DNA of 50,010 nucleotides from a virus. The stretch's first letter is position 1; each line of letters starts with the position of its first letter. Positions 586-49,614 of the stretch are shown piece by piece. The stretch lies in IMG/VR virus record IMGVR_UViG_3300048913_000097. One strand, written 5' to 3'. The translations under genes were made by a program, and so were the position numbers. The notes beneath the pieces were generated by a model. The model did no database searches and was not told where the DNA came from. It worked only from the letters and a program-made list of their open reading frames with translations.

Positions 586-614
586 TTGACAGGCTCGTCA
601 TTATGATCCACAGT
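586..614 (+). promoter_or_regulatory. Sigma70-like promoter with variant dyad (TTGACA-N17-CACAGT)
   Basis: TTGACA 586-591, 17-nt spacer, CACAGT 609-614. TGACA-ggct-CGTCA (587-600) is a one-base variant of the TGACG-N4-CGTCA family. Confidence 0.45.
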
Positions 615-645
615 GACTCCATCGAACCCCAACCGATGGAGTCAC
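613..645 (+). promoter_or_regulatory. Perfect 12-bp stem / 9-nt loop hairpin covering the RBS of 650..862
   Basis: GTGACTCCATCG (613-624), loop aaccccaac, CGATGGAGTCAC (634-645). The 3' arm contains GGAG 638-641, 8 nt before ATG 650. Confidence 0.6.
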
Positions 646-649
646 AACC

Positions 650-862
650 ATGAAATACTTCCTGTCTGACATCGCTGGCACTGTTTACGAGATCGTCACC
701 GGTCAAAGTTTCACGCAGCGTCTGATCCGTCGCAAAGTCGGCAACGTGTTCCGTCGGTTGAAGGGTGAAGCGCCACGCCGGAGCTGGGAAGACGGTCGCG
801 TCAACAAACCAAGCGTCGAAGAATGTCAGCGACTGAAAGACGAAGCGGGGCGGTCGGTATGA
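650..862 (+). CDS. Hypothetical protein, 70 aa
   Basis: GGAG 8 nt upstream. The stop overlaps the next ATG (ATGA at 859-862). Confidence 0.65.
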   Translation: MKYFLSDIAGTVYEIVTGQSFTQRLIRRKVGNVFRRLKGEAPRRSWEDGRVNKPSVEECQRLKDEAGRSV

Positions 863-993
863 TCGCGCTACTGGCACTAAGGTTCTTCGTCCTGCGCGAG
901 AACAAGTCGACCAAACCCAAGCCTGTGTATCACCAGACGTGGCCTGACGAAGTCCCAGGTTATCCAGCATCCGCATACGTGAGGGGTTTATGA
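859..993 (+). CDS. Hypothetical small protein, 44 aa, hydrophobic N-terminus (MIALLALRFFVL...)
   Basis: Below the ORF-track cutoff. ATG 859 overlaps the upstream stop, and its own TGA (991-993) overlaps the next ATG 990. ATGA coupling on both sides. Confidence 0.5.
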   Translation: MIALLALRFFVLRENKSTKPKPVYHQTWPDEVPGYPASAYVRGL

Positions 994-1181
994 CTAACGC
1001 GACCATAACGTTCAAGGGTGCCAGTCGTGCGACGCTGTCAAAGATCGCACGTGACGCGCTCCAGGCTGCCGGGTTCGTGTGCAGCGACATGTTCTACAAC
1101 GACGCACATCAGAACGAGAGTTTCGTTGTGCAGAACCCACGTCGTACGATTAAGGACGCAGCGGCTGTTAAACCGCAATAG
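990..1181 (+). CDS. Hypothetical protein, 63 aa
   Basis: ATGA coupling to the upstream ORF. GAGGGG lies 5 nt upstream. The gene ends 14 nt inside the convergent gene 1168..1590. Confidence 0.6.
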
Positions 1182-1590
1182 CGCCCATGCCAGCGCGACG
1201 ACGCAGGCGATAGAACTGCTGACCGTACACTGTGAAGGTCAACCAGTCGTCGCCCACGTCCATCATCTTAGGTACCCGATACGCGATAGCCTCATCACCT
1301 ACTGACTTGCTGGCGACGTTCAACCGCGCCTCAGAGTTGGGATCAGCGGTCACACCGGTTGTGCCGTAGTTCGTCGCGAGCCAGTGCGCAGCGAAGTAGA
1401 ACATTCCACGCCGCTTGAAGTTGTGGCACTCGTCCTCGTACGCACCCCAGCGACTCGAACCCGTCTCGGCGTCAGCCTCGCACAATGCACAACTGATCAG
1501 CGCGTCGGGCCATTTGGTAACGTCGGAGAACGCGAAGAATTCAGCCCGGAAGCTGTCGATCATTGCCTGGGTGATGACCACGGTGGCCAC
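1168..1590 (-). CDS. Head-tail connector/adaptor, DUF4054-like
   Basis: The segment ...[11 protein letters not shown]...[13 protein letters not shown] resembles DUF4054 phage proteins (from memory). It sits at the end of the head module. The start is GTG 1590. An alternative GTG at 1581 has AGGAG 8 nt upstream. Confidence 0.7.
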
Positions 1591-1631
1591 TCCTATGTGT
1601 CGTTGCGCTACAGAATAGCATGACAGACGGT

Positions 1632-1666
1632 AAAAACCCCAGTCGCACCGGTTAAAGTGGCTGGGG
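1632..1666 (-). terminator. Candidate intrinsic terminator (minus strand)
   Basis: Minus strand reads CCCCAG-18 nt-CTGGGG followed by TTTTT. The loop is large, so the call is weak. Confidence 0.4.
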
Positions 1667-1815
1667 TAGGGGTTACGGTTTACTCAAACATCTCAGGCGC
1701 TTTGATCCACGTTGGCGCGATGATCTGGTCGCGAAGAAGGACGACCGCTAAACCTGTGATGCATTCCGAGCCGTAACGGCATTGCTGGCGCTGGTTGATG
1801 CAATTGACATTACCG

Positions 1816-2127
1816 TCACACGTTGACTTTGTCAATCTCGGTGCGGATCTTGTCGGCGTTCCAGGTTTTCTTGACGTCGATACCGAGCAGCAGCGCTTCG
1901 TTACGCAGCGCTTCGAGATTATCGTCGCCGTCGGTATCAGCCGGGGTCATGCGGGTCAGGTCGCCAGTATTGAGCAGGTTTTTCACGAAGTCGGATTTGC
2001 ACAGCTCATCCGGTACTTCGACCGCTGGGTTTTCACCGGGCTTGATGTCGAAGAATGTGGTGTAACCACCGTCGGTCATCGGGGCGTTGATGGTGATCAG
2101 TCGGCTCGAATTGTTTCGCAGCAGCAT
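1816..2127 (-). CDS. Hypothetical protein, 103 aa, with C-terminal HeH/SAP-like motif
   Basis: GAGG 9 nt upstream. The C-terminus LEALRNEALLLGIDVKKTWNADKIRTEI looks like a Rho-N/HeH helix-extension-helix motif. Confidence 0.7.
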   Translation of the reverse strand: MLLRNNSSRLITINAPMTDGGYTTFFDIKPGENPAVEVPDELCKSDFVKNLLNTGDLTRMTPADTDGDDNLEALRNEALLLGIDVKKTWNADKIRTEIDKVNV

Positions 2128-2155: not shown

Positions 2156-2737
2156 TTATTGTACATCAGTTTTGCGGTAACCGGCGTCGTAGAGTGCTTG
2201 GCAGCCATCCTTGACGTGGCCTTCATAGTTCGACTTGTAGACCGCTGCCATTTCGTCGATTGCTTTCAGGCGCTCTTCCGCCGCGATCTGCTCAGGCGTT
2301 CGGATTGGGCGGAAAGAACAGTTTCGCGGATGATGAACGTGTTCACATTTATCACCACCGATGATTACAGTGCAGTCGCTAACGTAGCGAATATCACCAA
2401 CCGCCCATTGTCCTTCCGGTGACGGCGGTGAACTGTGTTTCATAAACTCACACACCGTCCCAACCGGCGGCAGTTCTTCGCCGTTCCATTCGGTAACCTT
2501 CGGCTCATTCACCGCATCAACTGCGACCTGCCATTCGGCGCGGGTGACGACCGGGTACGGGTCACGCTCAGAGTGATGAGTTTCAAGGTCAACTTTTGGC
2601 GCAAGCGAATGCGCCCCCATCGGATGATCTTCAGGAAAGCTTTGGTACAGCTCGTTATCAACCTGCGATTGAGTCAGCTGCTCAACACCTTCCGGCCACT
2701 CCTTCAGCTCTCGCGCCAAAATATCAATCAGTTTCAT
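2156..2737 (-). CDS. Hypothetical protein, 193 aa
   Basis: GGGAGGG 8 nt upstream of the ATG. It is the first gene after promoter 2773..2801. Confidence 0.8.
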   Translation of the reverse strand: MKLIDILARELKEWPEGVEQLTQSQVDNELYQSFPEDHPMGAHSLAPKVDLETHHSERDPYPVVTRAEWQVAVDAVNEPKVTEWNGEELPPVGTVCEFMKHSSPPSPEGQWAVGDIRYVSDCTVIIGGDKCEHVHHPRNCSFRPIRTPEQIAAEERLKAIDEMAAVYKSNYEGHVKDGCQALYDAGYRKTDVQ

Positions 2738-2772: not shown

Positions 2773-2801
2773 ATCCTGCACCACTGTGACGAGTCCGTCA
2801 A
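2773..2801 (-). promoter_or_regulatory. Operator-promoter: TTGACG-N17-CAGGAT with TGACG-N4-CGTCA dyad (2787-2800)
   Basis: Minus strand reads TTGACGgactcgtcacagtggtgCAGGAT. It lies directly after the capsid-gene terminator. Confidence 0.5.
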
Positions 2802-5546: not shown

Positions 5547-5574
5547 ATACTATCACGACGTTACGGATTATCAA
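5547..5574 (-). promoter_or_regulatory. Possible sigma70 promoter re-starting transcription into the scaffold gene
   Basis: Minus strand reads TTGATA-N16-TAGTAT, inside the last codons and 3' flank of the HNH gene. Confidence 0.3.
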
Positions 5575-6385
5575 ACTTGTTGCGTTTCGCAAAATTGTCT
5601 TCAGCCCATAACGGTTGAAGGTTGGATAATGCGTTCACGATGGCTGGATCGGTGACACCTTCAGCAACAAAAAGCGATACGGGTCGGATGTGGTCGATGT
5701 GCCAATCACCGTAGTTCGACCAACTCATCCCGCCGGTGAAAAGGGATGTCATGTAATCCATTAATTCGATACCGGTGTAGCCGAGTAGTGTGCTTGATCG
5801 ACCAACCTTCCGATTCTGACCCGCCGCCAGTACTCGTTTGAGCATATTGCGAGCTGCTGTCGCGGCTTTGTATCCCGGGTCAGTTGCGTAACGCCGACGT
5901 TGGTTTTCAACATTCTTCGCGATCATGTGAGAACGATTCGTCTGGTGGTAATCGGCCTTCATCGCTTTGTAATCTGGGCATAACCGCTTCAATGTCATGC
6001 AGTCGAGGCACTGGTTATTCGCCGTAGATCGCTCACCCCTATGACCCCGCTTGCACAGCACACCTTCGTTGTAACGGGTTAGACTCTGGGCGAGTGCATC
6101 AACTCGCGAGACGAATAACTCACCCACCGCGATACGATTTTGTTCGGCTTTATCTTTACGCCTGTCGGCTCGTGCCTGGGCTTGTCTTGCACGTCCGGCT
6201 TTGTAGACTTCGCCTTTGCGATACTCGACACCCATTTGTTTTGTTTCGTTGAGTGCATCGTACTCGCGCTTGATCTGGTTTTTACACGACTTACAGCGAT
6301 TATCAACCCCGCGTCCACACTTCTTGTTTCTGTGGAATTCCGTCAACGGTTTTTCGATACCGCATTTCACGCACGTCTTTGTCAT
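5561..6385 (-). CDS. HNH homing-endonuclease-like protein
   Basis: The C-terminus HIDHIRPVSLF...NLQPLWAEDNFAKRNK is an HNH motif. The N-terminal half carries CxxC...CxxC zinc-ribbon repeats. The start is set at ATG 6385, which has GAGGGCGGG upstream. The longer track ORF (to 6616) would cover the plus-strand promoter and gene. Confidence 0.85.
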   Translation of the reverse strand: MTKTCVKCGIEKPLTEFHRNKKCGRGVDNRCKSCKNQIKREYDALNETKQMGVEYRKGEVYKAGRARQAQARADRRKDKAEQNRIAVGELFVSRVDALAQSLTRYNEGVLCKRGHRGERSTANNQCLDCMTLKRLCPDYKAMKADYHQTNRSHMIAKNVENQRRRYATDPGYKAATAARNMLKRVLAAGQNRKVGRSSTLLGYTGIELMDYMTSLFTGGMSWSNYGDWHIDHIRPVSLFVAEGVTDPAIVNALSNLQPLWAEDNFAKRNKFDNP

Positions 6386-6432: not shown

Positions 6433-6461
6433 TTGACGCAACTTGTATCGACTGACAATAT
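6433..6461 (+). promoter_or_regulatory. Sigma70-like promoter TTGACG-N17-CAATAT
   Basis: TTGACG 6433-6438, CAATAT 6456-6461. It points into 6492..6791. Confidence 0.5.
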
Positions 6462-6474
6462 GACGAAAACGTCA
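6461..6474. promoter_or_regulatory. TGACG-aaaa-CGTCA dyad placed at the -10/+1 of promoter 6433
   Basis: Exact palindrome. This is the only copy not fused to its own -35. Confidence 0.55.
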
Positions 6475-6491: not shown

Positions 6492-6791
6492 ATGGAAGGT
6501 ATGAAATTTGATAGCGGGAAACCGCTGATGAGCCTCATCCCGGCGAGAGCAGAAACGGCAATGGCTGAGGTTTTGACGTTTGGTGCGACGAAGTATGGTC
6601 CCGACAACTGGCGCAAAGTTGCGAATGGTGACCAACGTTACTTGGACGCGCTCATGCGCCACGTGAACTCACATCGACGGGGCGAGCTTCTGGACAGTGA
6701 GACCGGTCTCCCTCACCTTGCGCACGCGATGTGCTGTGTGGCGTTCCTGTTGGAGCTGCAACTCAACCCTTACCCTCCTGAAACGCCTTAA
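6492..6791 (+). CDS. dATP/dGTP pyrophosphohydrolase-like protein (DUF5664-type)
   Basis: KFDSGKPLMSLIP...VLTFGATKYGPDNWRK...RHVNSHRRGELLDSETGLPHLAHA matches the DUF5664 phage family as I recall it. The start is ambiguous (GTG 6480, ATG 6492, ATG 6501). Confidence 0.7.
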   Translation: MEGMKFDSGKPLMSLIPARAETAMAEVLTFGATKYGPDNWRKVANGDQRYLDALMRHVNSHRRGELLDSETGLPHLAHAMCCVAFLLELQLNPYPPETP

Positions 6792-7542
6792 CCTTCGAGT
6801 CCGGGACAGCGATTGCGATGCACCTGCATTGATAATCGCTACCCGGCTGAATTGGTTCACCCTTGTCGCTGAGCGGCAAATCGCTCCAGGCGTATACGCC
6901 CTTGCCGAATTCCGTCACCTTGTCCGCGATTTCACGGTGGCGATGGCGCACGCGTTGGTCATGACTGTCGACCCAGCGGAAGTACGAAAATCCTGCAGCG
7001 GTCTGTTTACGCTTATTCAACTCGCCTTGCACTTTGGCATGTTGATCGCGTGCAATCATTTTCGCCCGACGCGCCGTAACGCCGAATTGCTCGCTCAACG
7101 CCTTCTCGATGAACGACGGTCGCATACCGGCGCGCATATTCGCCATGACGATGTTCGACACTTGTTCCAGGTACTGCGCAGGAATCGACGTGATGAGCGT
7201 GGCGTTCTGATAGGTCGCTGCGTCGAGATAGTTGCGCGCCTGTTGCGAGTTGCTAAACACGTCGATACCGAACGACTGTCGCCCACGTGAATTCACACGC
7301 ATCTGTGACTTTACGAACTCCGACGCGATTGATTCGGCTGCTTGACGTGCGGGAGGGGAGAGCCACTTACCGAGCAGGAATTGTAACGCCCTGGCGATGG
7401 TGTCGGCCCAGCCGTCCAGTGTCGGCGTCGAGTCCTGAACGTATTCAGGCGCGTACTGTTTCACGAGCGGAACGATCACCTCGTCGATGTCTTTCCTCAC
7501 CGCCCGGGCGATTCGCTGAAGTGCTGCGTTATATCGAACCAT
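6763..7542 (-). CDS. Head morphogenesis protein (SPP1 gp7 / Mu F-like)
   Basis: 259 aa lying between the portal and scaffold genes. ...YFRWVDSHDQRVRHRHREIADKV... is typical of this family. No SD is visible upstream. Confidence 0.82.
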   Translation of the reverse strand: MVRYNAALQRIARAVRKDIDEVIVPLVKQYAPEYVQDSTPTLDGWADTIARALQFLLGKWLSPPARQAAESIASEFVKSQMRVNSRGRQSFGIDVFSNSQQARNYLDAATYQNATLITSIPAQYLEQVSNIVMANMRAGMRPSFIEKALSEQFGVTARRAKMIARDQHAKVQGELNKRKQTAAGFSYFRWVDSHDQRVRHRHREIADKVTEFGKGVYAWSDLPLSDKGEPIQPGSDYQCRCIAIAVPDSKVKAFQEGKG

Positions 7543-7545
7543 GTG

Positions 7546-7574
7546 TTGACGAGTCCGTCAGAAGGGGTTACAGT
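7546..7574 (+). promoter_or_regulatory. Operator-promoter: TTGACG-N17-TACAGT, dyad 7547-7560
   Basis: TTGACGagtccgtcagaaggggtTACAGT. It points into 7607..8193. Confidence 0.55.
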
Positions 7575-7606: not shown

Positions 7607-7831
7607 ATGCATCACAACGAACTGGTAATCGGCGACAAAGTCAAAGTTGTTTGTGTAAACACGCGTCATCCCCATGAACTCGCATATCGCATCGGTGAGA
7701 TCGGCATTGTCGTAAAAATCGAGGATGACGATACGTGCCAGAACGTGAAATTGGCAATGGACGATGGTGAGGATCTGTACATCTCGACGTTCGAACTTGT
7801 CGCCCGGGCCAAATGGGAGCACGTGCAATGA
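7607..7831 (+). CDS. Hypothetical protein, 74 aa
   Basis: GGAG 8 nt upstream. The gene is antisense to the surrounding late genes. Confidence 0.7.
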   Translation: MHHNELVIGDKVKVVCVNTRHPHELAYRIGEIGIVVKIEDDDTCQNVKLAMDDGEDLYISTFELVARAKWEHVQ

Positions 7832-8193
7832 CCCCAACACTCGAAACGATGCTGGCTGAGTGGCGCGACCTTGAAGCACGTGCCAAGGCGGCACAGGCTG
7901 AAGCCGACGCACTGTTTGAACACGCCGGTCAATGTCACGGTGAGATCGTTGTGCGACTCGCTGAACTCGGTTGGGGTGCGCCACGTGGTGAGCCGGTTGT
8001 GACGCTGGATGACAGCGACGGGTGGATCGAGTGGAACGGTGGTAAACGACCTGTACACCCTCTTCAAATCGTCGATGTCCGTTTACGTGACGGTGACGAG
8101 AAATTCGGATATAGCGCCAATAACTGGGGGTGGGGTCACGAGCGGGACGATTATATCGTCGCCTACCGTCTCACCCCATCAACACAGCCATAG
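7828..8193 (+). CDS. Hypothetical protein, 121 aa
   Basis: ATG 7828 overlaps the upstream stop (ATGA). The gene ends 23 nt inside the convergent portal gene. Confidence 0.7.
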   Translation: MTPTLETMLAEWRDLEARAKAAQAEADALFEHAGQCHGEIVVRLAELGWGAPRGEPVVTLDDSDGWIEWNGGKRPVHPLQIVDVRLRDGDEKFGYSANNWGWGHERDDYIVAYRLTPSTQP

Positions 8194-9559
8194 CCGAATC
8201 GTGTGATACACCGTCGCGGGTCAGGGCGGTGTACGCACTCATGAACGCGTCAGTCGATAACGCTGGCGCTTTCTCTTCAACAACCGGTTCAGCAGGCATG
8301 TTCGGTTCCTCCAACCCTTCAAGTTCCTCGATGTCCTCGTCGTTGAACTGATACGCCTCTTCAGCCTGGAGACGGCGCTGAATCTGACTCACTTGAACCA
8401 CACTCGCGTCGAGATACGCGATATCCGTATCAGCACGCAGCTTCGCGGCTGTCGCCATCGCCACAGTGTCGGGCTGATCGAGTGGGTTCCAGACGTAGTT
8501 GTAATCCTCCGGCCAGTACCCCAGCGCTGAACGTACCAACACCTGATCGAGTGAGCGTAGGCCCGGGTCGAGCTGCGTCAGTTGTTTCGAGCGGATCGAA
8601 TTCTTGTAGTTGGTGTTGTCACCCTCACCGGTGGCGTTGAGCCCTTTGGCAGACGTACCGAACAGTCGAGTGACAGGAATGTCGGCGGCACCACTGATCC
8701 ACGTCATCAACGTTTCAAGCACCGGGGCAACCCCGGCGAGGTCCAGGGTCTTACGGTCGTACGTCTCTTCACCGTCGAGCAACGCCATCTGCACGAGCGA
8801 CTTCATCTGACTGAACAGGGTGTAACGGTCGATGATCGCCGAGTCCTGATCACTCGCCAATTCGTCGCTCAACCCCACACGGGTGATCACATCGACGTTC
8901 GCTTCCTGCATCAGCTCAGCGATACCGTCCTTACTCGCGACGATGTCCATAATGTCTTCGAGACACTTGCGCAGTTCCGAGTCGCCCCAACCTTGCGTCT
9001 GTGCACGTTGACGACGTGGCAGCTTAGCGCCCATGAACCGCGCAAAGTGTGACCAATGAACCTGTTGTCCACCACCGTTGATGGTGTAGAACTCCGGTTC
9101 GAGGTAATTCGCTGCCAGGACGTTCCAGGTGTTGAGCGTCATCGCTTGCATATCGAAGCGGTCGAACACGATCACACGTTGCAAGTCACCCTTGCGCACC
9201 GCGTTCAGGTTGAGCGGTTTGGTCAAATCTTGACCGGTAATCATGAGAATGCCGCCACCACCGTACAGACGTGCCCAGCTCAGCGCCTCGTTGCAGTCCA
9301 TCGGGATGTGGAGGCGATCCTCTTCGGCGCGGATCTCGTCAGCACCGTCACACTTGATCGTACGCCACTCACGCGTCATGTCCTCAGCGGGAATATCGAC
9401 GATCTGGCGGGCTAGCCAACTGGTAGTATAGGCCGCGTCCCAGCTCGCCCAGTTGTTAAGGACTGAGTAGCAGAACTGGTTGTGAGACCGCTTAGCCTTC
9501 GAGGTGCCGAGACCGGAAGCGACGTTAACAAGTCCGTCGGTAGTGGCTGGTAAAGTCAT
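8171..9559 (-). CDS. Portal protein (DUF1073-type)
   Basis: 462 aa, lying next to the terminase genes. The N-terminus ...DGLVNVASGLGTSKAKRSHNQF... and the overall size fit DUF1073 portals. Confidence 0.88.
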   Translation of the reverse strand: MTLPATTDGLVNVASGLGTSKAKRSHNQFCYSVLNNWASWDAAYTTSWLARQIVDIPAEDMTREWRTIKCDGADEIRAEEDRLHIPMDCNEALSWARLYGGGGILMITGQDLTKPLNLNAVRKGDLQRVIVFDRFDMQAMTLNTWNVLAANYLEPEFYTINGGGQQVHWSHFARFMGAKLPRRQRAQTQGWGDSELRKCLEDIMDIVASKDGIAELMQEANVDVITRVGLSDELASDQDSAIIDRYTLFSQMKSLVQMALLDGEETYDRKTLDLAGVAPVLETLMTWISGAADIPVTRLFGTSAKGLNATGEGDNTNYKNSIRSKQLTQLDPGLRSLDQVLVRSALGYWPEDYNYVWNPLDQPDTVAMATAAKLRADTDIAYLDASVVQVSQIQRRLQAEEAYQFNDEDIEELEGLEEPNMPAEPVVEEKAPALSTDAFMSAYTALTRDGVSHDSAMAVLMG

Positions 9560-9560
9560 G

Positions 9561-9589
9561 TTGACGAACCCGTCATAGTGTCATATGCT
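9561..9589 (+). promoter_or_regulatory. Operator-promoter: TTGACG-N17-TATGCT, dyad 9562-9575
   Basis: TTGACGaacccgtcatagtgtcaTATGCT. The -35 begins 2 nt from the portal ATG on the other strand. Confidence 0.6.
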
Positions 9590-9626: not shown

Positions 9627-9986
9627 ATGGGTGACAACAACGTAACACTTGACAAGCGTGATCTGTTCGATGCGGTGCGATCAGCTATCAAAGACGCAAT
9701 GCTTGAACAGGGTAGCCGTGAAGACGGTGTCGAACTGTTCGAGGATGCTACGGATCGGACCAACAAGTGTTTATCGGAACTCTACGCTTCGTTACCTGAC
9801 GGGTTCACCGTCGGTCAGGTGTTGAAATGTGTAGCGATTCCTGATCGTCACGACGGGTATTTCACTATTGGTCGGGAATACATCGTTGTGAGCGTAGATC
9901 TAGACGATGACGAATTACCGCTTAAAATGACCTGTGATACAGCCATCACGCTGTGGTGTGAGGCCGAAGCATTCGTAGCGTCATAA
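9627..9986 (+). CDS. Hypothetical acidic protein, 119 aa
   Basis: GAGGGG 7 nt upstream of ATG 9627. The track ORF starts earlier, at 9585, without an RBS. The gene ends 6 nt inside the convergent TerL gene. Confidence 0.7.
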   Translation: MGDNNVTLDKRDLFDAVRSAIKDAMLEQGSREDGVELFEDATDRTNKCLSELYASLPDGFTVGQVLKCVAIPDRHDGYFTIGREYIVVSVDLDDDELPLKMTCDTAITLWCEAEAFVAS

Positions 9987-11928: not shown

Positions 11929-11973
11929 ACGATTGTCGCCGTCGCTGACAGGCGAGTCAATCCCGACAGGTCC

Positions 11974-12000
11974 ATACCCCGTAAAACTGATTCGGGGTAT
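11974..12000 (-). promoter_or_regulatory. Leader inverted repeat ATACCCCG-11 nt-CGGGGTAT upstream of terS
   Basis: 8-bp arms and an 11-nt loop. It is the counterpart of 49160..49184. Confidence 0.55.
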
Positions 12001-12048
12001 TTATCGGGGTATGTCGTAAGTCCTTGTATTTACTACTAATATATATTT

Positions 12049-12260
12049 TATACCCCGATACCCCGAATAAATAATATTAGTAGTAGAGTAGTAATGTATA
12101 TGAGAATACATATCATTATATATTATATCGTATGGCTGGAGAGTGAGAGCGATACGGGGTATTCGGGTAAACCCGCTACAAGCCACGTAATCCGTGGCTT
12201 CCAGGCTACCCCGGATAGTTTGCGAGTTCCGGGGTACGGGGTATACCGGGGTACGGTTTT
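12049..12260. repeat. Dispersed repeat A (homologous to 49235..49432), ATACCCCG-box rich
   Basis: Three conserved blocks are shared with copy B. They are TATACCCCGATACCC..AATAAATAATATTAG, GAGAGTGAGA.CGAT.CGGGGTATTCGG.TAA and TACCCCGGATAGTTTGCGAGTT.CGGGGTACGGGGTAT. Confidence 0.9.
12122..12170 (-). promoter_or_regulatory. Candidate activator-dependent late promoter A (drives terS operon)
   Basis: Minus strand reads CCGAATACCCCGTATCGCTCTCAC-15 nt-TATAAT. There is no TTGACA-like -35. Copy B has identical geometry. Confidence 0.45.
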
Positions 12261-12261
12261 G

Positions 12262-12450
12262 AGCGAAAATAAATTATCTCGACACCAGTTAAATTAAAAA
12301 TGATTATTTTCTGGTCAAAAAGTAACCAAATTAAATTAAAAATAAATTACTGAAAATTAACTAACGTCGAGATAATTATAAATCGATCAATTTTTAACCA
12401 GATGTCAACCAAAAATGATCAAAAGTCGACAGCGATAAATTACTGAAATT
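12262..12450. other. AT-rich, repeat-dense non-coding island
   Basis: Hand count gives 48 G/C in 12261-12450 (about 25 percent). A 12-bp inverted repeat AATTATCTCGAC / GTCGAGATAATT lies at about 12272 and 12367. Direct repeats are TTAAATTAAAAAT (12289, 12330) and ATAAATTACTGAAA (12342, 12435). Confidence 0.8.
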
Positions 12451-12471
12451 AAAAAACCCGCCTAAGCGGGT
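12451..12471 (-). terminator. Intrinsic terminator ending the early minus-strand block
   Basis: Minus strand reads ACCCGC-ttag-GCGGGT followed by TTTTTT. The stem overlaps the stop codon of 12462..12953. Confidence 0.75.
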
Positions 12472-12953
12472 CGTTGCATCACGTAAACCTGTTCCCAGGT
12501 CGGCCATCCTTTGGTCACATTTGGACCCCTGTCGACCTTTTTGCGCTTCACCTTGACGGGTGGAACCCATTCGAATTTGATGTCGATTCCACGTACTTTC
12601 ATGGCGTATCGGATGCCCGAGTTCTGACTGGCGCCACAGAATCCAATCGCCCTGTTCACCTGATTCAAGCTATAGCCCTCTCGCTGCATTCTCAACAGAG
12701 CGTCTCTGAACGGCTCACCTGTATCGCGTACATAGTTGGCGACCACATTGGAACTACCCCACGGGTTGTTGTCTTGGTTAGCTCTCAGTAACGCTGTAAA
12801 GGCATTACGTTCCATACCGATAATTCGGGACGCATCAGCGCGTGTGAACCCCTGATGGTGTATATCGTGTACGAGTCGCCAGAATGGAATACCCCAGCGT
12901 TCAGCAACTCGTACACGTGTCCAACTTCGCTTGGTTTCAGTGGCGTTTAACAT
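12462..12953 (-). CDS. HTH DNA-binding protein, 163 aa (candidate late regulator)
   Basis: HTH-like segments (FTRADASRIIGMERNAFTALLR and YSLNQVNRAIG). It is the last gene before the terminator and late repeat A. Confidence 0.65.
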   Translation of the reverse strand: MLNATETKRSWTRVRVAERWGIPFWRLVHDIHHQGFTRADASRIIGMERNAFTALLRANQDNNPWGSSNVVANYVRDTGEPFRDALLRMQREGYSLNQVNRAIGFCGASQNSGIRYAMKVRGIDIKFEWVPPVKVKRKKVDRGPNVTKGWPTWEQVYVMQRPA

Positions 12954-13230
12954 AGCGTTCCAACTTCCTGAAGTCGATACCGGTTATACGACCCAACTCT
13001 TTCCAAGTTGCACCAGCGGCTTTAAGTCGTTTCATGCGTGCAAGTTCATACGACGTCAACAACCCCGTGGACTTACGCAATGGTGACTGATAACGCTTGT
13101 CGCGTTTGTAACCGGCTGCTGCAAGTGCGCGACGTACAAGATGCACCGTACTTCCGCAACGAGTCGCCACAGTGTGCCAGGGGAGCCCAGAGTTGCGTAA
13201 ATCGATAGCCCGGTCGGTGTCTATGCTCAT
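12937..13230 (-). CDS. Double-HTH DNA-binding protein, 97 aa
   Basis: Two HTH-like units: LPWHTVATRCGSTVHLVRRAL and ATWKELGRITGIDFRKLERYV. Confidence 0.65.
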   Translation of the reverse strand: MSIDTDRAIDLRNSGLPWHTVATRCGSTVHLVRRALAAAGYKRDKRYQSPLRKSTGLLTSYELARMKRLKAAGATWKELGRITGIDFRKLERYVKRH

Positions 13231-15322: not shown

Positions 15323-15351
15323 ATTATTATCCATAATGACGAGACCGTCAA
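15323..15351 (-). promoter_or_regulatory. Operator-promoter: TTGACG-N17-AATAAT, dyad 15337-15350
   Basis: Minus strand reads TTGACGgtctcgtcattatggatAATAAT, directly after terminator 15365..15392. Confidence 0.55.
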
Positions 15352-15364: not shown

Positions 15365-15392
15365 AAAAACCGCCGTTAGCGACGGGCGGTTT
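15365..15392 (-). terminator. Intrinsic terminator
   Basis: Minus strand reads ACCGCC...GGCGGT followed by TTTTTATTT. The stem overlaps the stop of 15376..15810. Confidence 0.65.
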
Positions 15393-16037: not shown

Positions 16038-16235
16038 TTAATCATCTCGCGAAATGACGGACTCGTCAATATTTAATTTACGGTCCTGACGATTCGACCC
16101 GACCAACGGTAATTGCCCGTCCGATAAATGCCAGGGGATCTCGGTTTTACAGTCGGGACATTGCTTCATATTCAGCGAGCTATACCGTATCAGATCGGTA
16201 CACCCGCACTGCGGACACGACGTGTGAGCGTTCAC
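16038..16235 (-). CDS. Zinc-ribbon protein, 65 aa
   Basis: CPQCG...CPDC. GTG 16235 overlaps the upstream stop (GTGA), with GGAGG 5 nt upstream. Confidence 0.6.
   Translation of the reverse strand: MNAHTSCPQCGCTDLIRYSSLNMKQCPDCKTEIPWHLSDGQLPLVGSNRQDRKLNIDESVISRDD
16041..16069 (-). promoter_or_regulatory. Operator-promoter: TTGACG-N17-GATGAT, dyad 16055-16068
   Basis: Minus strand reads TTGACGagtccgtcatttcgcgaGATGAT. It lies within the last codons of 16038..16235. Confidence 0.5.
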
Positions 16236-17733: not shown

Positions 17734-17762
17734 AGTATTAGCCATCCTGACGAGTCCGTCAA
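17734..17762 (-). promoter_or_regulatory. Operator-promoter: TTGACG-N17-AATACT, dyad 17748-17761
   Basis: Minus strand reads TTGACGgactcgtcaggatggctAATACT, directly after terminator 17775..17830. Confidence 0.55.
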
Positions 17763-20274: not shown

Positions 20275-21188
20275 GCCAGAAGTTCCAACCATGTGGTGAT
20301 ATCAGGATTCATTTGCCGCCACTCCGTTGCACCGTCGAAACCCTTCAGCCCGGCGGATGGGAATTGCGAATGAAATAGTTTTTCTAATGACGGAGGGATC
20401 GACCCATCATCACAGTGAATTTCACGGTGGACTGAGAATTTAAATGGGGTATTTCGCCTAAGTGTCATTTGGCGTTTGGTGGGGCTATTGCTGATCCCAA
20501 TCTTAATCATTTTCTCGTCATGGGAAATCAACGCATACAATGTCCCCGGATTCGATGGGTTATATCCGCTGGTTGCGCAACTTGGACACCTGTTACTTTC
20601 ACGAACGAAACCGCATATACCTACTTGCCACTCACCATGTATGTCGCAGCTCATGATCGCTCGACTGCGGGAATCAACATATTCACCGATCCACCCGATA
20701 AATTTGTAACCGTCGAGTAACGCAATGGTAGTTAATTGTGCCTCCCGTTCGTCACGGGATAATTTTTTATCACCGCAGTCTGGGCACCGTCGACCCTTAT
20801 TGATGAAGTTGTTCGGCGTGGTTAGCCAGTCACCATGTCTCGAACACCTGATAGTCATTTTACTGAACATGCCAGAATATTCGCCGCCCCAACCTATAAA
20901 AATAAGGTTGGTTTGCGACATCAATGCTGTAATTTTTGATTCGCAAACATCACGAGGCATCCGAGTCTGAACACCCCTCACCTCGCAGGCGCACGAACGG
21001 CAACGAGCTCCCTTGTGGTAGAAGCCGCCGACCGACGACGTCCAGTCACCATGTTTCACGCAGTTAAATATTGCGCGACTTTTACTATTCTTGTATTCGT
21101 CGACAAAACCTACAAACTTGTACCCATCAGCTAAAGCAGCGGCAGACAACTGCACCGCCCGATCCGATGTCGAGATTTTCTTAACCAT
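20271..21188 (-). CDS. T5orf172 / GIY-YIG-like homing-endonuclease-type protein with three zinc-ribbon repeats
   Basis: It has three tandem modules of about 55 aa with the pattern GYKF(V/I)G..EY..S.S....C..HG.W......F.....RC..C. The C-terminus GTLYALISHDEKMIKIGISNSPTKRQMTL...GATEW resembles the T5orf172 domain. Confidence 0.78.
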   Translation of the reverse strand: MVKKISTSDRAVQLSAAALADGYKFVGFVDEYKNSKSRAIFNCVKHGDWTSSVGGFYHKGARCRSCACEVRGVQTRMPRDVCESKITALMSQTNLIFIGWGGEYSGMFSKMTIRCSRHGDWLTTPNNFINKGRRCPDCGDKKLSRDEREAQLTTIALLDGYKFIGWIGEYVDSRSRAIMSCDIHGEWQVGICGFVRESNRCPSCATSGYNPSNPGTLYALISHDEKMIKIGISNSPTKRQMTLRRNTPFKFSVHREIHCDDGSIPPSLEKLFHSQFPSAGLKGFDGATEWRQMNPDITTWLELLA

Positions 21189-21220: not shown

Positions 21221-21505
21221 TCAAAGCAAGGTTTGCAATGCTCGAACCCTGAGAGCTTTCGGGGCTTTCATCGCCGTCGAATCACCTTCGGCCATTCCCG
21301 CCGCCAAGATGTCAAGCTGTTCCGATTCAATGGCGCGTTTCATGATTGCGGTCTTGAGATCATCCATCTTTCCATAGTGGAGGTTCACAGTACCACCCGC
21401 CACACCCGCACGCTCTGCAATCGCATCCCGTCTGATACCGCGATACCCACACTCGCACGCCAGGGTGAACGCTGCGTCGAGGATCTTGTCTTTCAAATGA
21501 CTCAT
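21221..21505 (-). CDS. Mini TetR-family HTH protein (94 aa, DNA-binding domain only)
   Basis: ILDAAFTLACECGYRGIRRDAIAERAGVAGGTVNLHYGKMDDLKTAIM matches the TetR N-terminal HTH pattern. There is no room for a ligand-binding domain. Confidence 0.7.
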   Translation of the reverse strand: MSHLKDKILDAAFTLACECGYRGIRRDAIAERAGVAGGTVNLHYGKMDDLKTAIMKRAIESEQLDILAAGMAEGDSTAMKAPKALRVRALQTLL

Positions 21506-21522: not shown

Positions 21523-21552
21523 AATATATTGGCATTGGTGCCAGTGTGTCAC
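21523..21552 (-). promoter_or_regulatory. Candidate promoter with TGGCA-N4-TGCCA dyad in the spacer, upstream of the TetR-like gene
   Basis: Minus strand reads GTGACA-N18-TATATT. A perfect dyad TGGCAttggTGCCA lies at 21530-21543. Confidence 0.4.
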
Positions 21553-22328: not shown

Positions 22329-22357
22329 ATTGTGACGACGTATGACGACATCGTCAA
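22329..22357 (-). promoter_or_regulatory. Operator-promoter: TTGACG-N17-CACAAT, dyad 22343-22356
   Basis: Minus strand reads TTGACGatgtcgtcatacgtcgtCACAAT. The TGA stop of the VRR-NUC gene lies inside TTGACG. Confidence 0.5.
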
Positions 22358-26501: not shown

Positions 26502-26777
26502 ATGGGTCAGTACACACCGGGGCCGTGGGACAATTCCAAACGCGTCGTGATATGTAATCAAGATGACGCAGGTATTCAGATTAGTTACCTCAGAACTTCA
26601 GATCCGAATCGTCGTGCTGAGGGTCGTGCAAATGCTTTTTTGATTGCTGCCGCACCTGACTTGCTTGAGGCTTTATCAGAGTTTCTTGAGCTTTACGAGA
26701 GCGACGAAGGATGTATTGAGTTACCTCAGTATTGTGCGGCAGCTGCTGCAATCGCTAAAGCCCGAGGTGACCAATGA
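26502..26777 (+). CDS. Hypothetical protein, 91 aa
   Basis: GPW...ANAFLIAAAPDLLEAL is a recurrent small phage protein signature of unknown function. Confidence 0.72.
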   Translation: MGQYTPGPWDNSKRVVICNQDDAGIQISYLRTSDPNRRAEGRANAFLIAAAPDLLEALSEFLELYESDEGCIELPQYCAAAAAIAKARGDQ

Positions 26778-31905: not shown

Positions 31906-31913
31906 GTGATACT
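31885..31913 (+). promoter_or_regulatory. Operator-promoter: TTGACG-N17-GATACT, dyad 31886-31899
   Basis: It lies in the last codons of the polymerase gene and points into 31932..32273. Confidence 0.5.
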
Positions 31914-38512: not shown

Positions 38513-38600
38513 TTGACGACGCTTGACAGTCACGTCATTAAATGCGACTGTACAACCTCCCTGCTTGTGTTGATGTGTTGCCCGGTTCGCCGGGCTTTTT
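38513..38600 (+). ncRNA. Candidate small RNA unit (orphan promoter-like sequence plus terminator, no ORF)
   Basis: Two promoter-like arrangements are present: TTGACG 38513-N17-CATTAA and TTGACA 38523-N17-GACTGT. They are followed by ...aaCCTCCCtgcttgtgttgatgtgtt and terminator 38580..38600. Confidence 0.25.
38580..38600 (+). terminator. Intrinsic terminator on the plus strand with no upstream plus-strand gene
   Basis: GCCCGG-ttcg-CCGGGC followed by TTTTT. Confidence 0.7.
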
Positions 38601-38612
38601 AACGGGTAGGGA

Positions 38613-38640
38613 TTGACGGATTCGTCACGGGTGATACAGT
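38613..38640 (+). promoter_or_regulatory. Operator-promoter: TTGACG-N16-TACAGT, dyad 38614-38627
   Basis: TTGACGgattcgtcacgggtgaTACAGT. It points into the 38672..39373 cassette. Confidence 0.55.
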
Positions 38641-38671: not shown

Positions 38672-38869
38672 ATGATCAGTAAGGGTAAGCGCAAACACAT
38701 CCAACGGTTAATATCACTCCGCCTATGGAATCAACTCCCGAAAGAAGAACAAACGCGTCGTATGGAAATCCATGTCCAGCGACTCATGCGTTCGGTTGCA
38801 TGTACCTATAATGTCCCAGTTCGTATGCTCTGCGGATTACCGATGTCAGAAGTGGAGGTGGTGCAATGA
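38672..38869 (+). CDS. Hypothetical basic protein, 65 aa
   Basis: GGGAG 10 nt upstream of ATG 38672. Confidence 0.55.
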   Translation: MISKGKRKHIQRLISLRLWNQLPKEEQTRRMEIHVQRLMRSVACTYNVPVRMLCGLPMSEVEVVQ

Positions 38870-39003
38870 CACCATTCGAGCAAGGTTACGCAGCATTCCT
38901 GGCTGGCAAGCCGAAGGACGCTAATCCATTCGGTGATGCAACCCCGTGGTCGGCGAACAATTGGATCAACGGATGGACTCGGGCACGGAGAGATCGCAAA
39001 TGA
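38866..39003 (+). CDS. Rmf/CrpP-like small protein, 45 aa
   Basis: Below the track cutoff. GGAGG 6 nt upstream, with ATGA overlaps at both ends. QGYAAFLAGKPKDANPF...WINGWTRA parallels the E. coli RMF segment RGYQAGIAGRSKEMCPY...WLGGWREA. Confidence 0.5.
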   Translation: MTPFEQGYAAFLAGKPKDANPFGDATPWSANNWINGWTRARRDRK

Positions 39004-39137
39004 AACGCACGTACGCTACGCGGATCTACACGTTTCAGGAACTGATGAACCGTCTCGACAGTGACTACTGGTACGTTCATCACCACGGCATGGGCTACTA
39101 TACGTTCGTGCCGGTGAATCAAGCGGGGAGGGGTTAG
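39000..39137 (+). CDS. Hypothetical small protein, 45 aa
   Basis: ATG 39000 overlaps the upstream stop. GGAGAG upstream. Confidence 0.48.
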   Translation: MKRTYATRIYTFQELMNRLDSDYWYVHHHGMGYYTFVPVNQAGRG

Positions 39138-39139
39138 GT

Positions 39140-39373
39140 GTGGACGCGGAAGAGATCAAACAAAAGTTACGCACCCGAGTTCGTACTACCTTTGACGGTG
39201 TTGGACTCCCACCGGTCGACTGCATTTGTATTTTGGATTCGCGGGAATATTGTTGCGACGTCCGAATTGTCGCTCACACGTTTGTCGCCGGTCGAGTCGC
39301 TGCCGTCTGGCAATTCGGTGATGAATTCGGTTACGGTCGTCCGGGCGATTTTAGTATCGACCCGGATCAGTAA
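39140..39373 (+). CDS. Hypothetical protein, 77 aa
   Basis: GTG start with GGGGAGGGG 6 nt upstream. The stop abuts the stop of the convergent gene 39374..40807. Confidence 0.58.
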   Translation: MDAEEIKQKLRTRVRTTFDGVGLPPVDCICILDSREYCCDVRIVAHTFVAGRVAAVWQFGDEFGYGRPGDFSIDPDQ

Positions 39374-48286: not shown

Positions 48287-48639
48287 TGGTCGTCGATCCT
48301 CGATACGATGCACTTGCAGTAGTCACGCCAGTATCGATTATCGCACCGATGCGCCTTCCATGTCTGACCGAGGAACGTCCACGTACCGGTCTGGTCGATC
48401 AGTTGCATGTTGCCGTCGTTGATGTAGATCCGGCGTGGGTCGACGATACGCTCCCCGCCTTGTGACAAGAAGTCGAGTTCGCGCTCACTCACCGGCTGGA
48501 TATTCACGATGTAATCGGATGTGGTCGTCGAGCCGGGTACGAATATCCCGTCGACGTAGCCGCCGCCAGTCATCGCGGTACGGGTTGCAGGGACCGAGAC
48601 GAATACCGCGTCGATATGTCCGGTCATCAGCAAACTCAT
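48283..48639 (-). CDS. Head closure / head-tail joining protein
   Basis: 118 aa between the gp10-like and neck genes. ATGA overlap with the upstream gene. Confidence 0.62.
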   Translation of the reverse strand: MSLLMTGHIDAVFVSVPATRTAMTGGGYVDGIFVPGSTTTSDYIVNIQPVSERELDFLSQGGERIVDPRRIYINDGNMQLIDQTGTWTFLGQTWKAHRCDNRYWRDYCKCIVSRIDDQ

Positions 48640-49121
48640 ACAAGGCCCTCTGTCGGTTTTTCGTCGGTGACTGTGGATGTGACAGAGGCGCGCATGCGCC
48701 CCGTGTCGATAAGGGGGTTATCCGATCCCTTCTTGGCGATTGTATACGGTGCGTTGGGTGGTGTCTTCAGGTCCGTGATGTACTGCTGAGTCGCCCCAGC
48801 CGCCAAGATGCCGACACCCTCGATGACCGTGTCAAGGTTTGCACCTTTGCCGATCTGGTCGCGAACGTAATCGATCACATCAACCGTACCTGACTGCACG
48901 CCGACGTCGAGCCAGGGGCGTGCTGGAATCTTAGGGGGTCCATCAGTACCGAAGTGCTGAAGCGCGCCGAGTTCAGCCTCGGTCATCTGCTCACCTTCGA
49001 CTTTTCCGGCATCCTCATGAATTCCGACGAGCGCGTACTTGCCCCCGCGAAACGTTTTCAGTTCCGTTTTCAGTTTGTCGACGGCCCGTTGGAAGTCAAC
49101 GGTTTTCAGGGAGATAGCCAT
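48636..49121 (-). CDS. HK97 gp10-like head-tail attachment protein
   Basis: ...PNAPYTIAKKGSDNPLIDTGRMRASV is typical of the gp10 family. No SD upstream of the ATG. Confidence 0.72.
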   Translation of the reverse strand: MAISLKTVDFQRAVDKLKTELKTFRGGKYALVGIHEDAGKVEGEQMTEAELGALQHFGTDGPPKIPARPWLDVGVQSGTVDVIDYVRDQIGKGANLDTVIEGVGILAAGATQQYITDLKTPPNAPYTIAKKGSDNPLIDTGRMRASVTSTVTDEKPTEGLV

Positions 49122-49159
49122 GGGTCGAATAATACCACAATGGTTGTCGTGACAATCCT

Positions 49160-49184
49160 TACCCCGGTAATTCTATACGGGGTA
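49160..49184 (-). promoter_or_regulatory. Leader inverted repeat TACCCCG-11 nt-CGGGGTA upstream of 48636..49121
   Basis: 7-bp arms and an 11-nt loop. It is the counterpart of 11974..12000. Confidence 0.55.
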
Positions 49185-49234
49185 GACATTCGGGGTATCG
49201 CTGAGAGTACCGGGATAGACACCTCCTTTTATTC

Positions 49235-49432
49235 TATACCCCGATACCCTTAATAAATAATATTAGAATAGGGATGGTATGTATGTAATACAGTAACGTA
49301 TATAGCCAGCGGCGTGAGAGTGAGATCGATGCGGGGTATTCGGTTAACACCCCTCAAACCCGCGTGCTAGAGCGCTAGAATCGTACCCCGGATAGTTTGC
49401 GAGTTTCGGGGTACGGGGTATGGTTTCAGCAC
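49235..49432. repeat. Dispersed repeat B (homologous to 12049..12260)
   Basis: It has the same three conserved blocks in the same order and orientation as copy A. Confidence 0.9.
49299..49347 (-). promoter_or_regulatory. Candidate activator-dependent late promoter B (drives neck/tail operon)
   Basis: Minus strand reads CCGAATACCCCGCATCGATCTCAC-15 nt-TATATA. The geometry is the same as in copy A. Confidence 0.45.
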
Positions 49433-49434
49433 CG

Positions 49435-49565
49435 GTGACCCTAGAAAAGACATTTCATGACTAGATAGTCGTTACTGGTCACTCTGTGACTACTGGGTCG
49501 TCTTCATTTCCGTGACTGGAAAATTACAGTGGACGTTCTGTGACTATTTGACATGATCTGGTCAC
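49435..49565. promoter_or_regulatory. Cluster of GTGAC/GTCAC boxes upstream of promoter 49586
   Basis: GTGAC at 49435, 49486, 49512 and 49540. GTCAC at 49478 and 49561. The extended context is YGTGACTR. Confidence 0.45.
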
Positions 49566-49585
49566 TGAGTACCTGACCAACGGTA

Positions 49586-49614
49586 TTGACGAACCCGTCA
49601 TTCTGGATAATACT
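49586..49614 (+). promoter_or_regulatory. Operator-promoter: TTGACG-N17-AATACT, dyad 49587-49600 (island I)
   Basis: TTGACGaacccgtcattctggatAATACT. The dyad is identical to the one at 9562. Confidence 0.55.

Follow-up and report, generated by a model that had tools for sequence, protein, structure and literature searches.

Promoter-fused palindromes recur across a small myovirus genome and its relatives, with a TetR-domain mini-protein as their candidate regulator

We analyzed the whole 50,010-nt stretch of DNA in the virus record IMGVR_UViG_3300048913_000097 of IMG/VR (hereafter the window) and observed that a 14-bp dyad, TGACG-N4-CGTCA, recurs throughout it. By the tests that a sequence allows, the copies are supported as promoter-shaped units, in which the first half-site doubles as a -35 element. 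Comparison with related phages indicates that the second, distal half-site is under selection beyond what sigma70 explains. On balance we think it probable that the dyad is the operator of a dimer of the phage's own 94-amino-acid (aa) TetR-domain protein, here called mini-TetR, which would occlude the -35 element and spacer and thereby repress an early and accessory regulon.

An overrepresented palindrome spread across the genome

Scanning both strands of the window returned 13 exact copies of the dyad (Table 1), against a chance expectation of 0.16 from dinucleotide shuffles (maximum 3) or 0.06 from base composition. In an unbiased scan of all 5-Nx-5 palindromes in the window, this dyad ranked first, with 13 copies vs 3 for the runner-up. 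Shuffles and de novo ranking together rule out chance or composition as the source of the dyads. Eight one-mismatch versions are present, where about four are expected by chance. Three of these (587, 21557 and 38524) show promoter architecture; the remaining five fall within coding sequence and are consistent with the chance expectation. A two-mismatch copy (11946..11959) lies within a promoter before terS. The total is thus 13 exact and four degenerate copies, spread across the whole 49.9 kb.

Despite a coding fraction of 92.5% (gene list supported by homology), 10 of the 13 exact copies are wholly intergenic. The other three sit in the final 1-35 codons of a gene: the dyad at 22343 overlaps a stop codon, that at 31886 is within the final 20 nt of the polymerase gene, and that at 27835 is 92-105 nt ahead of the stop, in the ~35 final codons of the exonuclease gene 26774..27940. 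An earlier note on this DNA (the original prediction) had listed 12 exact copies and a single-mismatch copy at 587, had judged such a number very rare by chance, had placed every copy between genes or in the last codons of a gene, and had proposed an exhaustive scan against shuffled controls. All 12 copies and the one at 587 are real, and their rarity and placement were borne out. The scan gave a strong excess and a sole additional exact copy, 27835, by which the list was incomplete.

Putative sigma70-type promoters share a half-site with the dyad

We observed that every exact copy (13/13) is flanked by a 5' T on exactly one side. In the orientation that this T defines, 12 of the 13 form TTGACG-N17(16)-NAnnnT. 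A flanking T together with NAnnnT at 16-18 nt, as at these 12 copies, is found at 6.9% of random positions; NAnnnT at exactly 17 nt occurs at 11 of the 13 copies vs 2.4% of random positions (binomial P ~1e-13). A near-TTGACA -35, a spacer of 17+/-1 nt and a NAnnnT -10, the features of a sigma70-type promoter, are present at 12 exact and all four degenerate copies. The spacer is 17 nt in 15 of these 16 promoters and 16 nt in one (38614). With the -10 placed at -12 to -7 and a 17-nt spacer, the dyad spans -34 to -21, is centered at about -27.5 and contains the near-consensus -35. The -10 elements are weak and constant only at A-11 and T-7. An open reading frame (ORF) preceded by a Shine-Dalgarno (SD) sequence starts 27-38 nt past the -10 in 13 of 15 units. 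The 11 hexamers and the one 16-nt spacer that the original prediction had named were all correct, and so was its statement that the promoters point into genes. We infer that transcription starts at these putative promoters and that host sigma70 is used.

Several other readings of this register were rejected. Class II activators center at -41.5 and MerR types require spacers of 19-20 nt. An FNR/CRP-type class II site would therefore be in the wrong register (the dyad centers at ~-27.5 and contains a near-consensus -35), and a MerR-type spacer operator would have the wrong spacer. A bidirectional promoter lacks, at every copy in the window, a second T-flank or -10. A possible role as restriction or methylation target of the phage methyltransferase was considered, and is made unnecessary by the fixed -10 register and the gene-ward orientation.

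Two further features of the promoter units were noted. At 38523..38601, a plus-strand terminator, gcccggttcgccgggcttttt, stands ~45 nt past a one-mismatch promoter (TTGACA...GACTGT) and ahead of the exact-dyad promoter at 38614. The short transcript from the 38523 promoter would hold CCUCC and may be a small RNA, or the arrangement an attenuated tandem promoter; a search of Rfam gave no match for this transcript. The leaders after 7574, 16041, 49614 and 15323 have CAACGGAG in common just ahead of the start codon, and similar leaders occur in relatives (ACAACAGAG/ACAACGGAG). This suggests an A/C-rich translation-initiation context that is conserved in the leaders of dyad promoters.

The distal half-site as half of a probable operator

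We compared orthologous promoters in the window and three of its close relatives, whose mini-TetR identity by tblastn is 43-84%. Both half-sites are kept, while the central 4 nt and the flanks vary; in the orthologue of 17748, the center changes from GACT to AGTC with the half-sites unchanged. The distal half-site is conserved like the -35 and far above the -10. The 27835 promoter lies within exonuclease coding sequence; PEi21, Vibrio phage 138 and two close relatives, L010 and L012, carry it at the orthologous position.

To these comparisons we added 53 sites pooled from six genomes and selected solely on TTGAC, GTCA, A-11 and T-7. The unselected positions are mirror-symmetric: G-30 (38/53) is matched by C-25 (44/53), R-29 by Y-26 and R-28 by Y-27. 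The base outside the distal half does not mirror the T of the -35. This asymmetry of the outer flank suggests that the symmetric unit is TGACGRR/YYCGTCA and that the extra T belongs to sigma70. The central RRYY is self-complementary in just 3 of 12 copies, which points to readout by a protein or of shape rather than to a hairpin.

Two kinds of departure from the usual arrangement are informative. The Acinetobacter phage Scuro has five TTGACA-N4-TGTCA promoters, in which both half-sites are altered jointly. The exact dyad at 6461 covers the -10/+1 of a promoter whose own TTGACG has no distal half-site, and this operator-only copy argues that operator and -35 are separable. The original prediction had described the displaced dyad at 6461 accurately, down to the 17-nt spacer. 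Its view of the dyad as an independent operator for a dimeric protein gains support from half-site conservation, symmetry, the covariation in Scuro and the 6461 copy.

A TetR-domain mini-protein is the candidate regulator

The candidate regulator, mini-TetR (21221..21505), consists of a TetR DNA-binding domain only. It matches PF00440 (TetR_N) at 32.5 bits vs a curated cut-off of 24, and its PDB sequence matches are DNA-binding domains of TetR-family proteins, save two weak matches to BurrH. An AlphaFold2 model (mean predicted local distance difference test score 93.5) predicts the TetR four-helix DNA-binding unit followed by three short helices. The best 50 fold matches listed are TetR regulators, with the N-terminal ~60-70 residues covered at low root-mean-square deviation. 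The C-terminal ligand-binding and dimerization domain of TetR (helices 4-9; ~200 aa in total) is absent from the 94-aa protein.

Homologues of mini-TetR are present in 105 phage records, including every dyad-bearing genome examined. Among annotated genes and those encoding a helix-turn-helix (HTH), it is the only regulator candidate conserved across all dyad genomes. Scuro shares with the window the replication module and mini-TetR only, and the Iodobacter phage PhiPLPE the structural module and mini-TetR only. Both bear dyad promoters, and apart from a tail-fibre fragment mini-TetR is the only window gene found in both. Yersinia phage PY100 and Aeromonas phage 56 are without mini-TetR and without an exact dyad. 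The original prediction had put forward three HTH proteins. Comparison favors 21221..21505 and disfavors the other two, 12462..12953 and 12937..13230, which we rejected: they have no Pfam match above cut-off and no homologue in other dyad genomes, and so cannot explain a family-wide motif.

The recognition-helix motif tracks operator type across the genomes compared. G-T/S-V/I-N-x-H, in the window, ZCEC13 and AAM22, accompanies TGACG/CGTCA; GIVSYYY (PEi21) and GTVSFAF (Vibrio phage 138) accompany an operator with a relaxed inner base; GTVLRYY (Scuro) goes with TGACA/TGTCA, and GLISKPF (PhiPLPE) with a CGGCA distal half. BcepB1A and SppYZU01 have GLV... and the TGAC/GTCA dyad is absent.

Tandem versions of 163-166 aa with two HTH units are found in Scuro, SppYZU01 and the metagenomic relative P0020, which fits two HTH units per dyad. 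In these versions (L008:21424-21924, L007:38065-38565 and P0019/P0020 at L013:3824-4315), a second, degenerate TetR-like HTH stands ahead of the conserved one, giving a covalent pseudo-dimer; P0017/P0018 carry a 44-aa insertion in place of the second HTH.

A suitable palindrome is present at 17 window promoters, including that of mini-TetR itself. The four close genomes all have an imperfect distal half, TGTCA or GGTCA, at this promoter. A dyad just upstream of the mini-TetR homologue is also found in Scuro, PhiPLPE and a metagenomic relative of 63% G+C.

The dyad is shared with related phages

The dyad is the top de novo palindrome in the E. coli Jedunavirus ZCEC13 and the Pantoea phage AAM22 as well, with 10 exact copies each. 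A relaxed form, TTGAC-N6-GTCA with a -10, has ~12 copies in PEi21 and ~7 in Vibrio phage 138. PhiPLPE has at least four variant promoters of the form TTGACG-N4-CGGCA(A/T), and the 63% G+C relative has five dyad promoters. PY100 and Aeromonas phage 56, which share the structural module distantly, have no exact copy and one or two relaxed copies, about chance level. In a scan of IMG/VR with a 14-base promoter pattern, many of the matches listed were on contigs of 43-50 kb, and several contigs were matched repeatedly. The genome-wide network that the original prediction proposed, and the conservation in related phages that it asked about, are thus both seen, in exact form in ZCEC13 and AAM22 and in relaxed or variant form elsewhere.

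Within the literature that could be searched, the motif was not found described; older genome papers (VP16T/VP16C, PMC219397; PhiPLPE; BcepB1A) could hold a prior mention. Comeau et al. (2012) note only tetR-like genes in PhiPLPE, CP-T1 and 138. The same authors describe phage 138 and PhiPLPE as lytic, and report temperate behavior of CP-T1 that is unexplained (PMC3391216).

In BcepB1A (L004), where a mini-TetR homologue is present and the TGAC/GTCA dyad is absent, about ten intergenic GATA(A/T)TATC palindromes lie over -10 regions (23197, 26422, 26472, 27697, 28203, 36856, 37239, 41085 and 46400). The diverged homologue may have these as an operator of another type. A palindrome search of SppYZU01 gave no clear operator of its own.

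Genome organization and genes downstream of the dyad promoters

PHROG, Pfam and BLAST annotation identify the window as the genome of a small myovirus. Its first 127 nt (1..127) are duplicated as its final 127 nt (49884..50010), which indicates that the contig is closed and the phage genome complete at 49,883 bp; alternatively, the duplication is a 127-bp terminal redundancy. The G+C content is 54.8%; no tRNA genes were found in the window, and no known RNA family was matched. Among named phages, Edwardsiella PEi21/MSW-3 (Yokohamavirus) and Jedunavirus are closest, with polymerase identities of 61% and 55%, and much closer relatives are encoded on metagenomic contigs of 49-50 kb. All structural genes are on the minus strand, and short opposite-strand cassettes of small genes break up the structural operons, in the window as in relatives. 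Among 60 ORFs scanned against PHROGs, none matched integrase, partition or CI/Cro-type proteins; many small ORFs are unannotated.

Dyad promoters precede three sets of genes: the two replication operons, which diverge, the early block of small genes, and the accessory cassettes. Both replication operons would be served by 25476, the one copy that is fully palindromic, in the 80-nt divergent region, where it would extend over the probable start of the leftward operon too. Two promoters internal to the replication operon (27835 and 31886) are read as boosters. The methyltransferase - TetR - endonuclease - primase block has promoters at 22343 and 21557, and three units of the small-ORF early region have promoters at 17748, 16055 and 15337. 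Every accessory cassette in the structural operons has a dyad promoter (6461/6433, 7547, 9562, 38524/38614, 49587/587 and 2787); no exact copy in the window stands ahead of the structural genes themselves.

Table 1 Putative promoter-operator units, the candidate regulator and the main gene blocks of the window.
Feature	Position	Strand	Details
Promoter-operator, one mismatch	586..614	plus	TTGACAGGCTCGTCA-N8-CACAGT; points to ORF 650..862
Promoter-operator	2773..2801	minus	Exact dyad 2787-2800; -10 CAGGAT; for accessory gene 2737..2156; directly after the terminator that trails the major head gene
Dyad-less promoter with exact dyad over -10/+1	6433..6474	plus	TTGACG(6433-6438)-N17-CAATAT(6456-6461), dyad 6461-6474; for dGTP/dATP diphosphohydrolase-like ORF 6492..6791
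Promoter-operator	7546..7574	plus	Exact dyad 7547-7560; -10 TACAGT; for antisense cassette 7607..8193
Promoter-operator	9561..9589	plus	Exact dyad 9562-9575; -10 TATGCT; for antisense ORF 9627..9986
Promoter-operator, two mismatches	11932..11960	minus	TTGACTCGCCTGTCAG-N7-GACAAT; before terS; identical in relative L011
Promoter-operator	15323..15351	minus	Exact dyad 15337-15350; -10 AATAAT; preceded by terminator 15369-15385
Promoter-operator	16041..16069	minus	Exact dyad 16055-16068; -10 GATGAT
Promoter-operator	17734..17762	minus	Exact dyad 17748-17761; -10 AATACT; downstream of primase terminator
Promoter of mini-TetR gene	21543..21571	minus	Imperfect dyad TTGACGCGCCTGTCA; -10 CACACT
Promoter-operator	22329..22357	minus	Exact dyad 22343-22356; -10 CACAAT; methyltransferase - mini-TetR - endonuclease - primase block
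Promoter-operator, fully palindromic	25475..25503	plus	TGACGACGTCGTCA 25476-25489; -10 TAGGAT; rightward replication operon
Promoter-operator	27834..27862	plus	Exact dyad 27835-27848; TTGACG-N17-TACAGT; inside exonuclease 3' end, upstream of ssDNA-annealing gene at 27940
Promoter-operator	31885..31913	plus	Exact dyad 31886-31899; -10 GATACT; final codons of DNA polymerase gene
Promoter-operator, one mismatch	38523..38551	plus	TTGACAGTCACGTCA; -10 GACTGT; terminator ~45 nt later
Promoter-operator	38613..38640	plus	Exact dyad 38614-38627; 16-nt spacer; -10 TACAGT; antisense cassette 38672..39373
Promoter-operator	49586..49614	plus	Exact dyad 49587-49600; -10 AATACT; for plus-strand cassette crossing contig junction
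Candidate regulator (mini-TetR)	21221..21505	minus	94 aa; Pfam TetR_N only
terS/terL	11.9-10.0 kb	minus	
Portal	9559-8171	minus	
Head morphogenesis	7542-6763	minus	Protease gene likewise among the minus-strand structural genes
Major head gene	3878-2847	minus	
Neck, tail, baseplate	49121-34153	minus	
Early block	25456-12462	minus	Helicase, nuclease, methyltransferase, TetR-like gene, endonuclease, primase, many small ORFs
Replication operon, divergent	25537-32273	plus	Exonuclease, Gp2.5-like annealing protein, second exonuclease, DNA polymerase
Accessory cassettes	6492..6791, 7607..8193, 9627..9986, 38672..39373, 49649..(junction)..1181, 2156..2737		Mostly antisense to structural operons

Which antisense cassettes are present, and which genes they hold, varies between the window, PEi21, ZCEC13, AAM22 and Vibrio phage 138. 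The ZCEC13 homologue of the window gene 2156..2737 sits in another cassette and in the other orientation, and AAM22 is without the cassette between portal and head-morphogenesis genes that the window, PEi21 and ZCEC13 have. This relocation and this absence suggest that the promoter-plus-gene units behave like morons. A terminator precedes 4 of 13 promoters. One cassette product is a protein with a dATP/dGTP diphosphohydrolase N-terminal domain (Pfam 2.3e-34).

At two cassettes, the dyad is close to a late-gene start on the opposite strand. The portal ATG (9559, minus) is 2 nt from the 9562 dyad and the head-morphogenesis ATG (7542, minus) 4 nt from the 7547 dyad. Such starts, 1-4 nt from a dyad and without a canonical SD, are seen in the window (9557..9575 and 7540..7560) and in relatives (L002:4660-4679; L001:4735-4754 and 19894-19913; L006:21407-21427 and 30085-30104), with a G-rich dyad center (GGG/GGA/GAGG) on the late-gene strand. 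The dyad might there serve as a hairpin or loop for translation initiation, or its position might reflect tight packing of inserted cassettes.

Several genes for HNH/homing-type endonucleases were also noted (5561..6385, 20271..21188 and 12937..13230), one of them between the mini-TetR and primase genes and another within the head-gene block. For the latter, the longest ORF (to 6616) overextends, and the likely start is the ATG at 6385 (MTKTCVKCG...). Upstream of the two late blocks on the minus strand (terS; neck/tail) are non-coding regions of ~450-500 bp, 11960..12460 and 49122..49586. They hold 18 of the 23 window copies of CGGGGTA, in both orientations (5 expected window-wide), and share longer similar stretches, e.g. 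49380-49420 with 12200-12250. These regions could be late-promoter or activator arrays, or origins. For PhiPLPE, CP-T1 and 138, Comeau et al. mention 'extended GC-rich repeats', of which they may be the counterpart.

Proposed mechanism and alternative explanations

We propose that each unit is a host sigma70-type promoter whose TTGACG -35 forms the promoter-proximal half of a 16-bp palindrome, T-TGACG-RRYY-CGTCA, at about -35 to -20, on which a mini-TetR dimer would dock. Mini-TetR would be made from one of its own regulated early operons. As it accumulates it would occupy -34 to -21, exclude sigma region 4 and lower the whole promoter set together, resulting in negative feedback or early shut-off. 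A dimer at this site would overlap the upstream part of the spacer together with the contact of sigma region 4, the classical position for a repressor. Silencing of the antisense cassettes would spare late read-through from head-on transcription, and the weakened operators at the mini-TetR and terS promoters would be repressed last or least.

A number of points weigh against this mechanism. The literature searched yielded no transcription-start, binding or expression data for the window phage or its relatives. Mini-TetR lacks the C-terminal domain through which canonical TetR proteins dimerize, so that its dimer is putative. The operator is nearly constant while mini-TetR drops to 31-34% identity (PEi21, Vibrio phage 138), a pattern that would also fit a host factor or a sigma70 constraint on TTGAC. 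Because the compared genomes are phylogenetically related, the co-occurrence of protein and dyad represents few independent events, and SppYZU01 and BcepB1A carry a homologue without the TGAC/GTCA dyad. With promoter 2787 upstream of a virion gene (1168..1590), the class cannot be called purely early. Finally, full repression of early promoters would leave the origin of late transcription unexplained.

It is unlikely, in our judgment, that another phage protein binds the dyad, or that mini-TetR is instead an activator or sigma-appropriating cofactor that marks promoters for RNA polymerase. Many small early ORFs are unannotated, the weak -10 elements could imply a need for help, and the missing dimerization domain speaks for these options too. 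No other early ORF, however, is conserved in all dyad genomes, a near-consensus -35 with the optimal 17-nt spacer needs no activator, and a dyad centered near -27.5, in the footprint of sigma region 4 and the spacer, is typical of repressors.

A host transcription factor, such as a RutR-type TetR protein or another dimeric HTH protein, might bind the dyad, so that the promoters are gated by host physiology; mini-TetR would then compete with that factor, act as a decoy or be unrelated to the dyad. The site of the TetR-family protein RutR of E. coli, TTGACCAnnTGGTCAA (PMC2475637), shares its TTGAC-N6-GTCAA frame with the dyad core. This indicates that a TetR-type dimer can read the frame, and the same fact sustains the host-factor explanation. 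Several PEi21 sites are RutR-like, e.g. TTGACCGGTCGGTCAT, and the motif varies little even where the phage protein has diverged to ~31% identity. Against this, the inner G/C positions are unlike the CCA/TGG of RutR, the motif is absent from PY100, a phage of an enterobacterium, and the variants track phage lineage (Scuro, PhiPLPE) and not anything known of host factors. The hosts also range over Enterobacterales, Vibrio, Acinetobacter and Iodobacter. We therefore regard a host factor as quite unlikely.

The dyad might also have no dedicated binder and ride on a portable promoter cassette, or be a relic of back-to-back -35 elements, its conservation being due to copying. Dyad-bounded cassettes do differ in content and place between relatives (2156..2737 vs ZCEC13; AAM22), some promoters follow a terminator (4/13), and several ZCEC13 sites read TTGACG...CGTCAA on both strands. 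In the window, though, none of the 13 copies has a T-flank or -10 in the second orientation. Moreover, the half-sites stay fixed while the flanks and central 4 nt drift, within and between genomes and down to ~31% protein identity, and copying does not explain the symmetric double change in Scuro or the operator-only 6461 copy. This explanation, too, is quite improbable.

That the palindrome is a nucleic-acid hairpin, either an RNA stem-loop 5' of late starts or a DNA cruciform or pause site, is very improbable: each copy folds as RNA to a 5-6 bp stem (~-5.3 kcal/mol), the change in Scuro preserves pairing, and the portal and head-morphogenesis starts next to a dyad without a clear SD recur in ZCEC13, PEi21 and Vibrio phage 138, but most copies are not adjacent to a late start codon, dyads are upstream of the start in their own transcription unit and so not transcribed, a hairpin gives no meaning to the central RRYY rule or to the constant spacing of 17 nt from the -10, and the short stem and the seldom complementary RRYY argue against a hairpin as the main explanation.

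If mini-TetR is the repressor, one extension of its role would reach much further, and we consider it a long shot: in phages that are counted as strictly lytic, the ligand-less mini-TetR and its graded operators, strong at early and accessory promoters and weak at the mini-TetR and terS promoters, might act as a switch that silences the whole genome. This would be a third, TetR-based dispersed-operator immunity beside those of P1 and the cluster A mycobacteriophages. With no need of integrase or partition genes, such a switch could keep the genome quiescent, in a carrier or pseudolysogenic state, and confer superinfection immunity; it might explain the temperate behavior reported for CP-T1 (PMC3391216).

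Significance and comparison with known systems

If the proposed operator-repressor pair is correct, one 16-bp sequence and a 94-aa protein define the early and accessory regulon in myoviruses of ~43-50 kb, a widespread group that takes in Jedunavirus (Klebsiella therapy candidates), Yokohamavirus and phages of Pantoea, Vibrio and Acinetobacter. A promoter and operon map would then be ready for dozens of poorly annotated genomes, together with a testable case of a virulent phage that shuts off scattered promoters, including those head-on to late operons. Mini-TetR would be a natural minimal TetR module whose candidate operator and specificity variants (CGTCA, TGTCA and CGGCA) could serve recognition studies and synthetic circuits. 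It would also offer an engineering handle, through tunable phage-native promoters or a knock-out of the global repression.

In phage P1, more than a dozen C1 operators are scattered over the genome of an enterobacterial phage, many of them overlapping promoters under joint control. The window is similar in its more than ten operator copies genome-wide (13 exact and four degenerate) and in its candidate phage-encoded repressor. The P1 sites are asymmetric 17-mers, to which a monomer-type repressor binds; in this temperate phage C1 acts as immunity repressor, embedded in antirepressor circuitry. The window, by contrast, has a perfect dyad joined to the -35 as its putative operator and a TetR-domain mini-protein as putative repressor, and showed no lysogeny genes. 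The stoperators of mycobacteriophage L5 and cluster A, bound by gp71, are tens of short sites, mostly in short intergenic gaps, that are conserved within the cluster and covary with the repressor. The window likewise has many dispersed, mostly intergenic sites that covary with a candidate repressor. Stoperators are asymmetric 13-mers oriented with transcription that mainly block elongation in lysogens, whereas the window sites are symmetric and hold a fixed promoter register (-35 to -20).

With TetR-tetO and RutR the window shares a TetR_N HTH, a palindrome of 14-16 bp with two 6-bp half-sites in successive major grooves, a putative operator that overlaps promoter elements, and a candidate site at the regulator's own promoter. 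Mini-TetR differs from these regulators in size (94 aa vs ~200 aa) and in having no ligand-binding and dimerization domain, so no small-molecule inducer is expected; its proposed regulon is the whole virus genome and not one neighboring operon. T4-type PeSLs (promoter-early stem-loops) are mobile regulatory cassettes, repeats of a stem-loop and promoter that are thought to be recombination substrates, with no cognate repressor or -35/spacer dyad. Like PeSLs and lambdoid morons, the window has repeated early-promoter modules, some after a terminator, that flank variable small genes between conserved genes, and relatives differ by reshuffled cassette contents. Control by repressor and operator is already well known, as is the dispersal of operators, and the window therefore adds no new principle. 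It combines features of P1 C1, stoperators, TetR pairs and PeSL/moron modules, and departs from the defining features of each.

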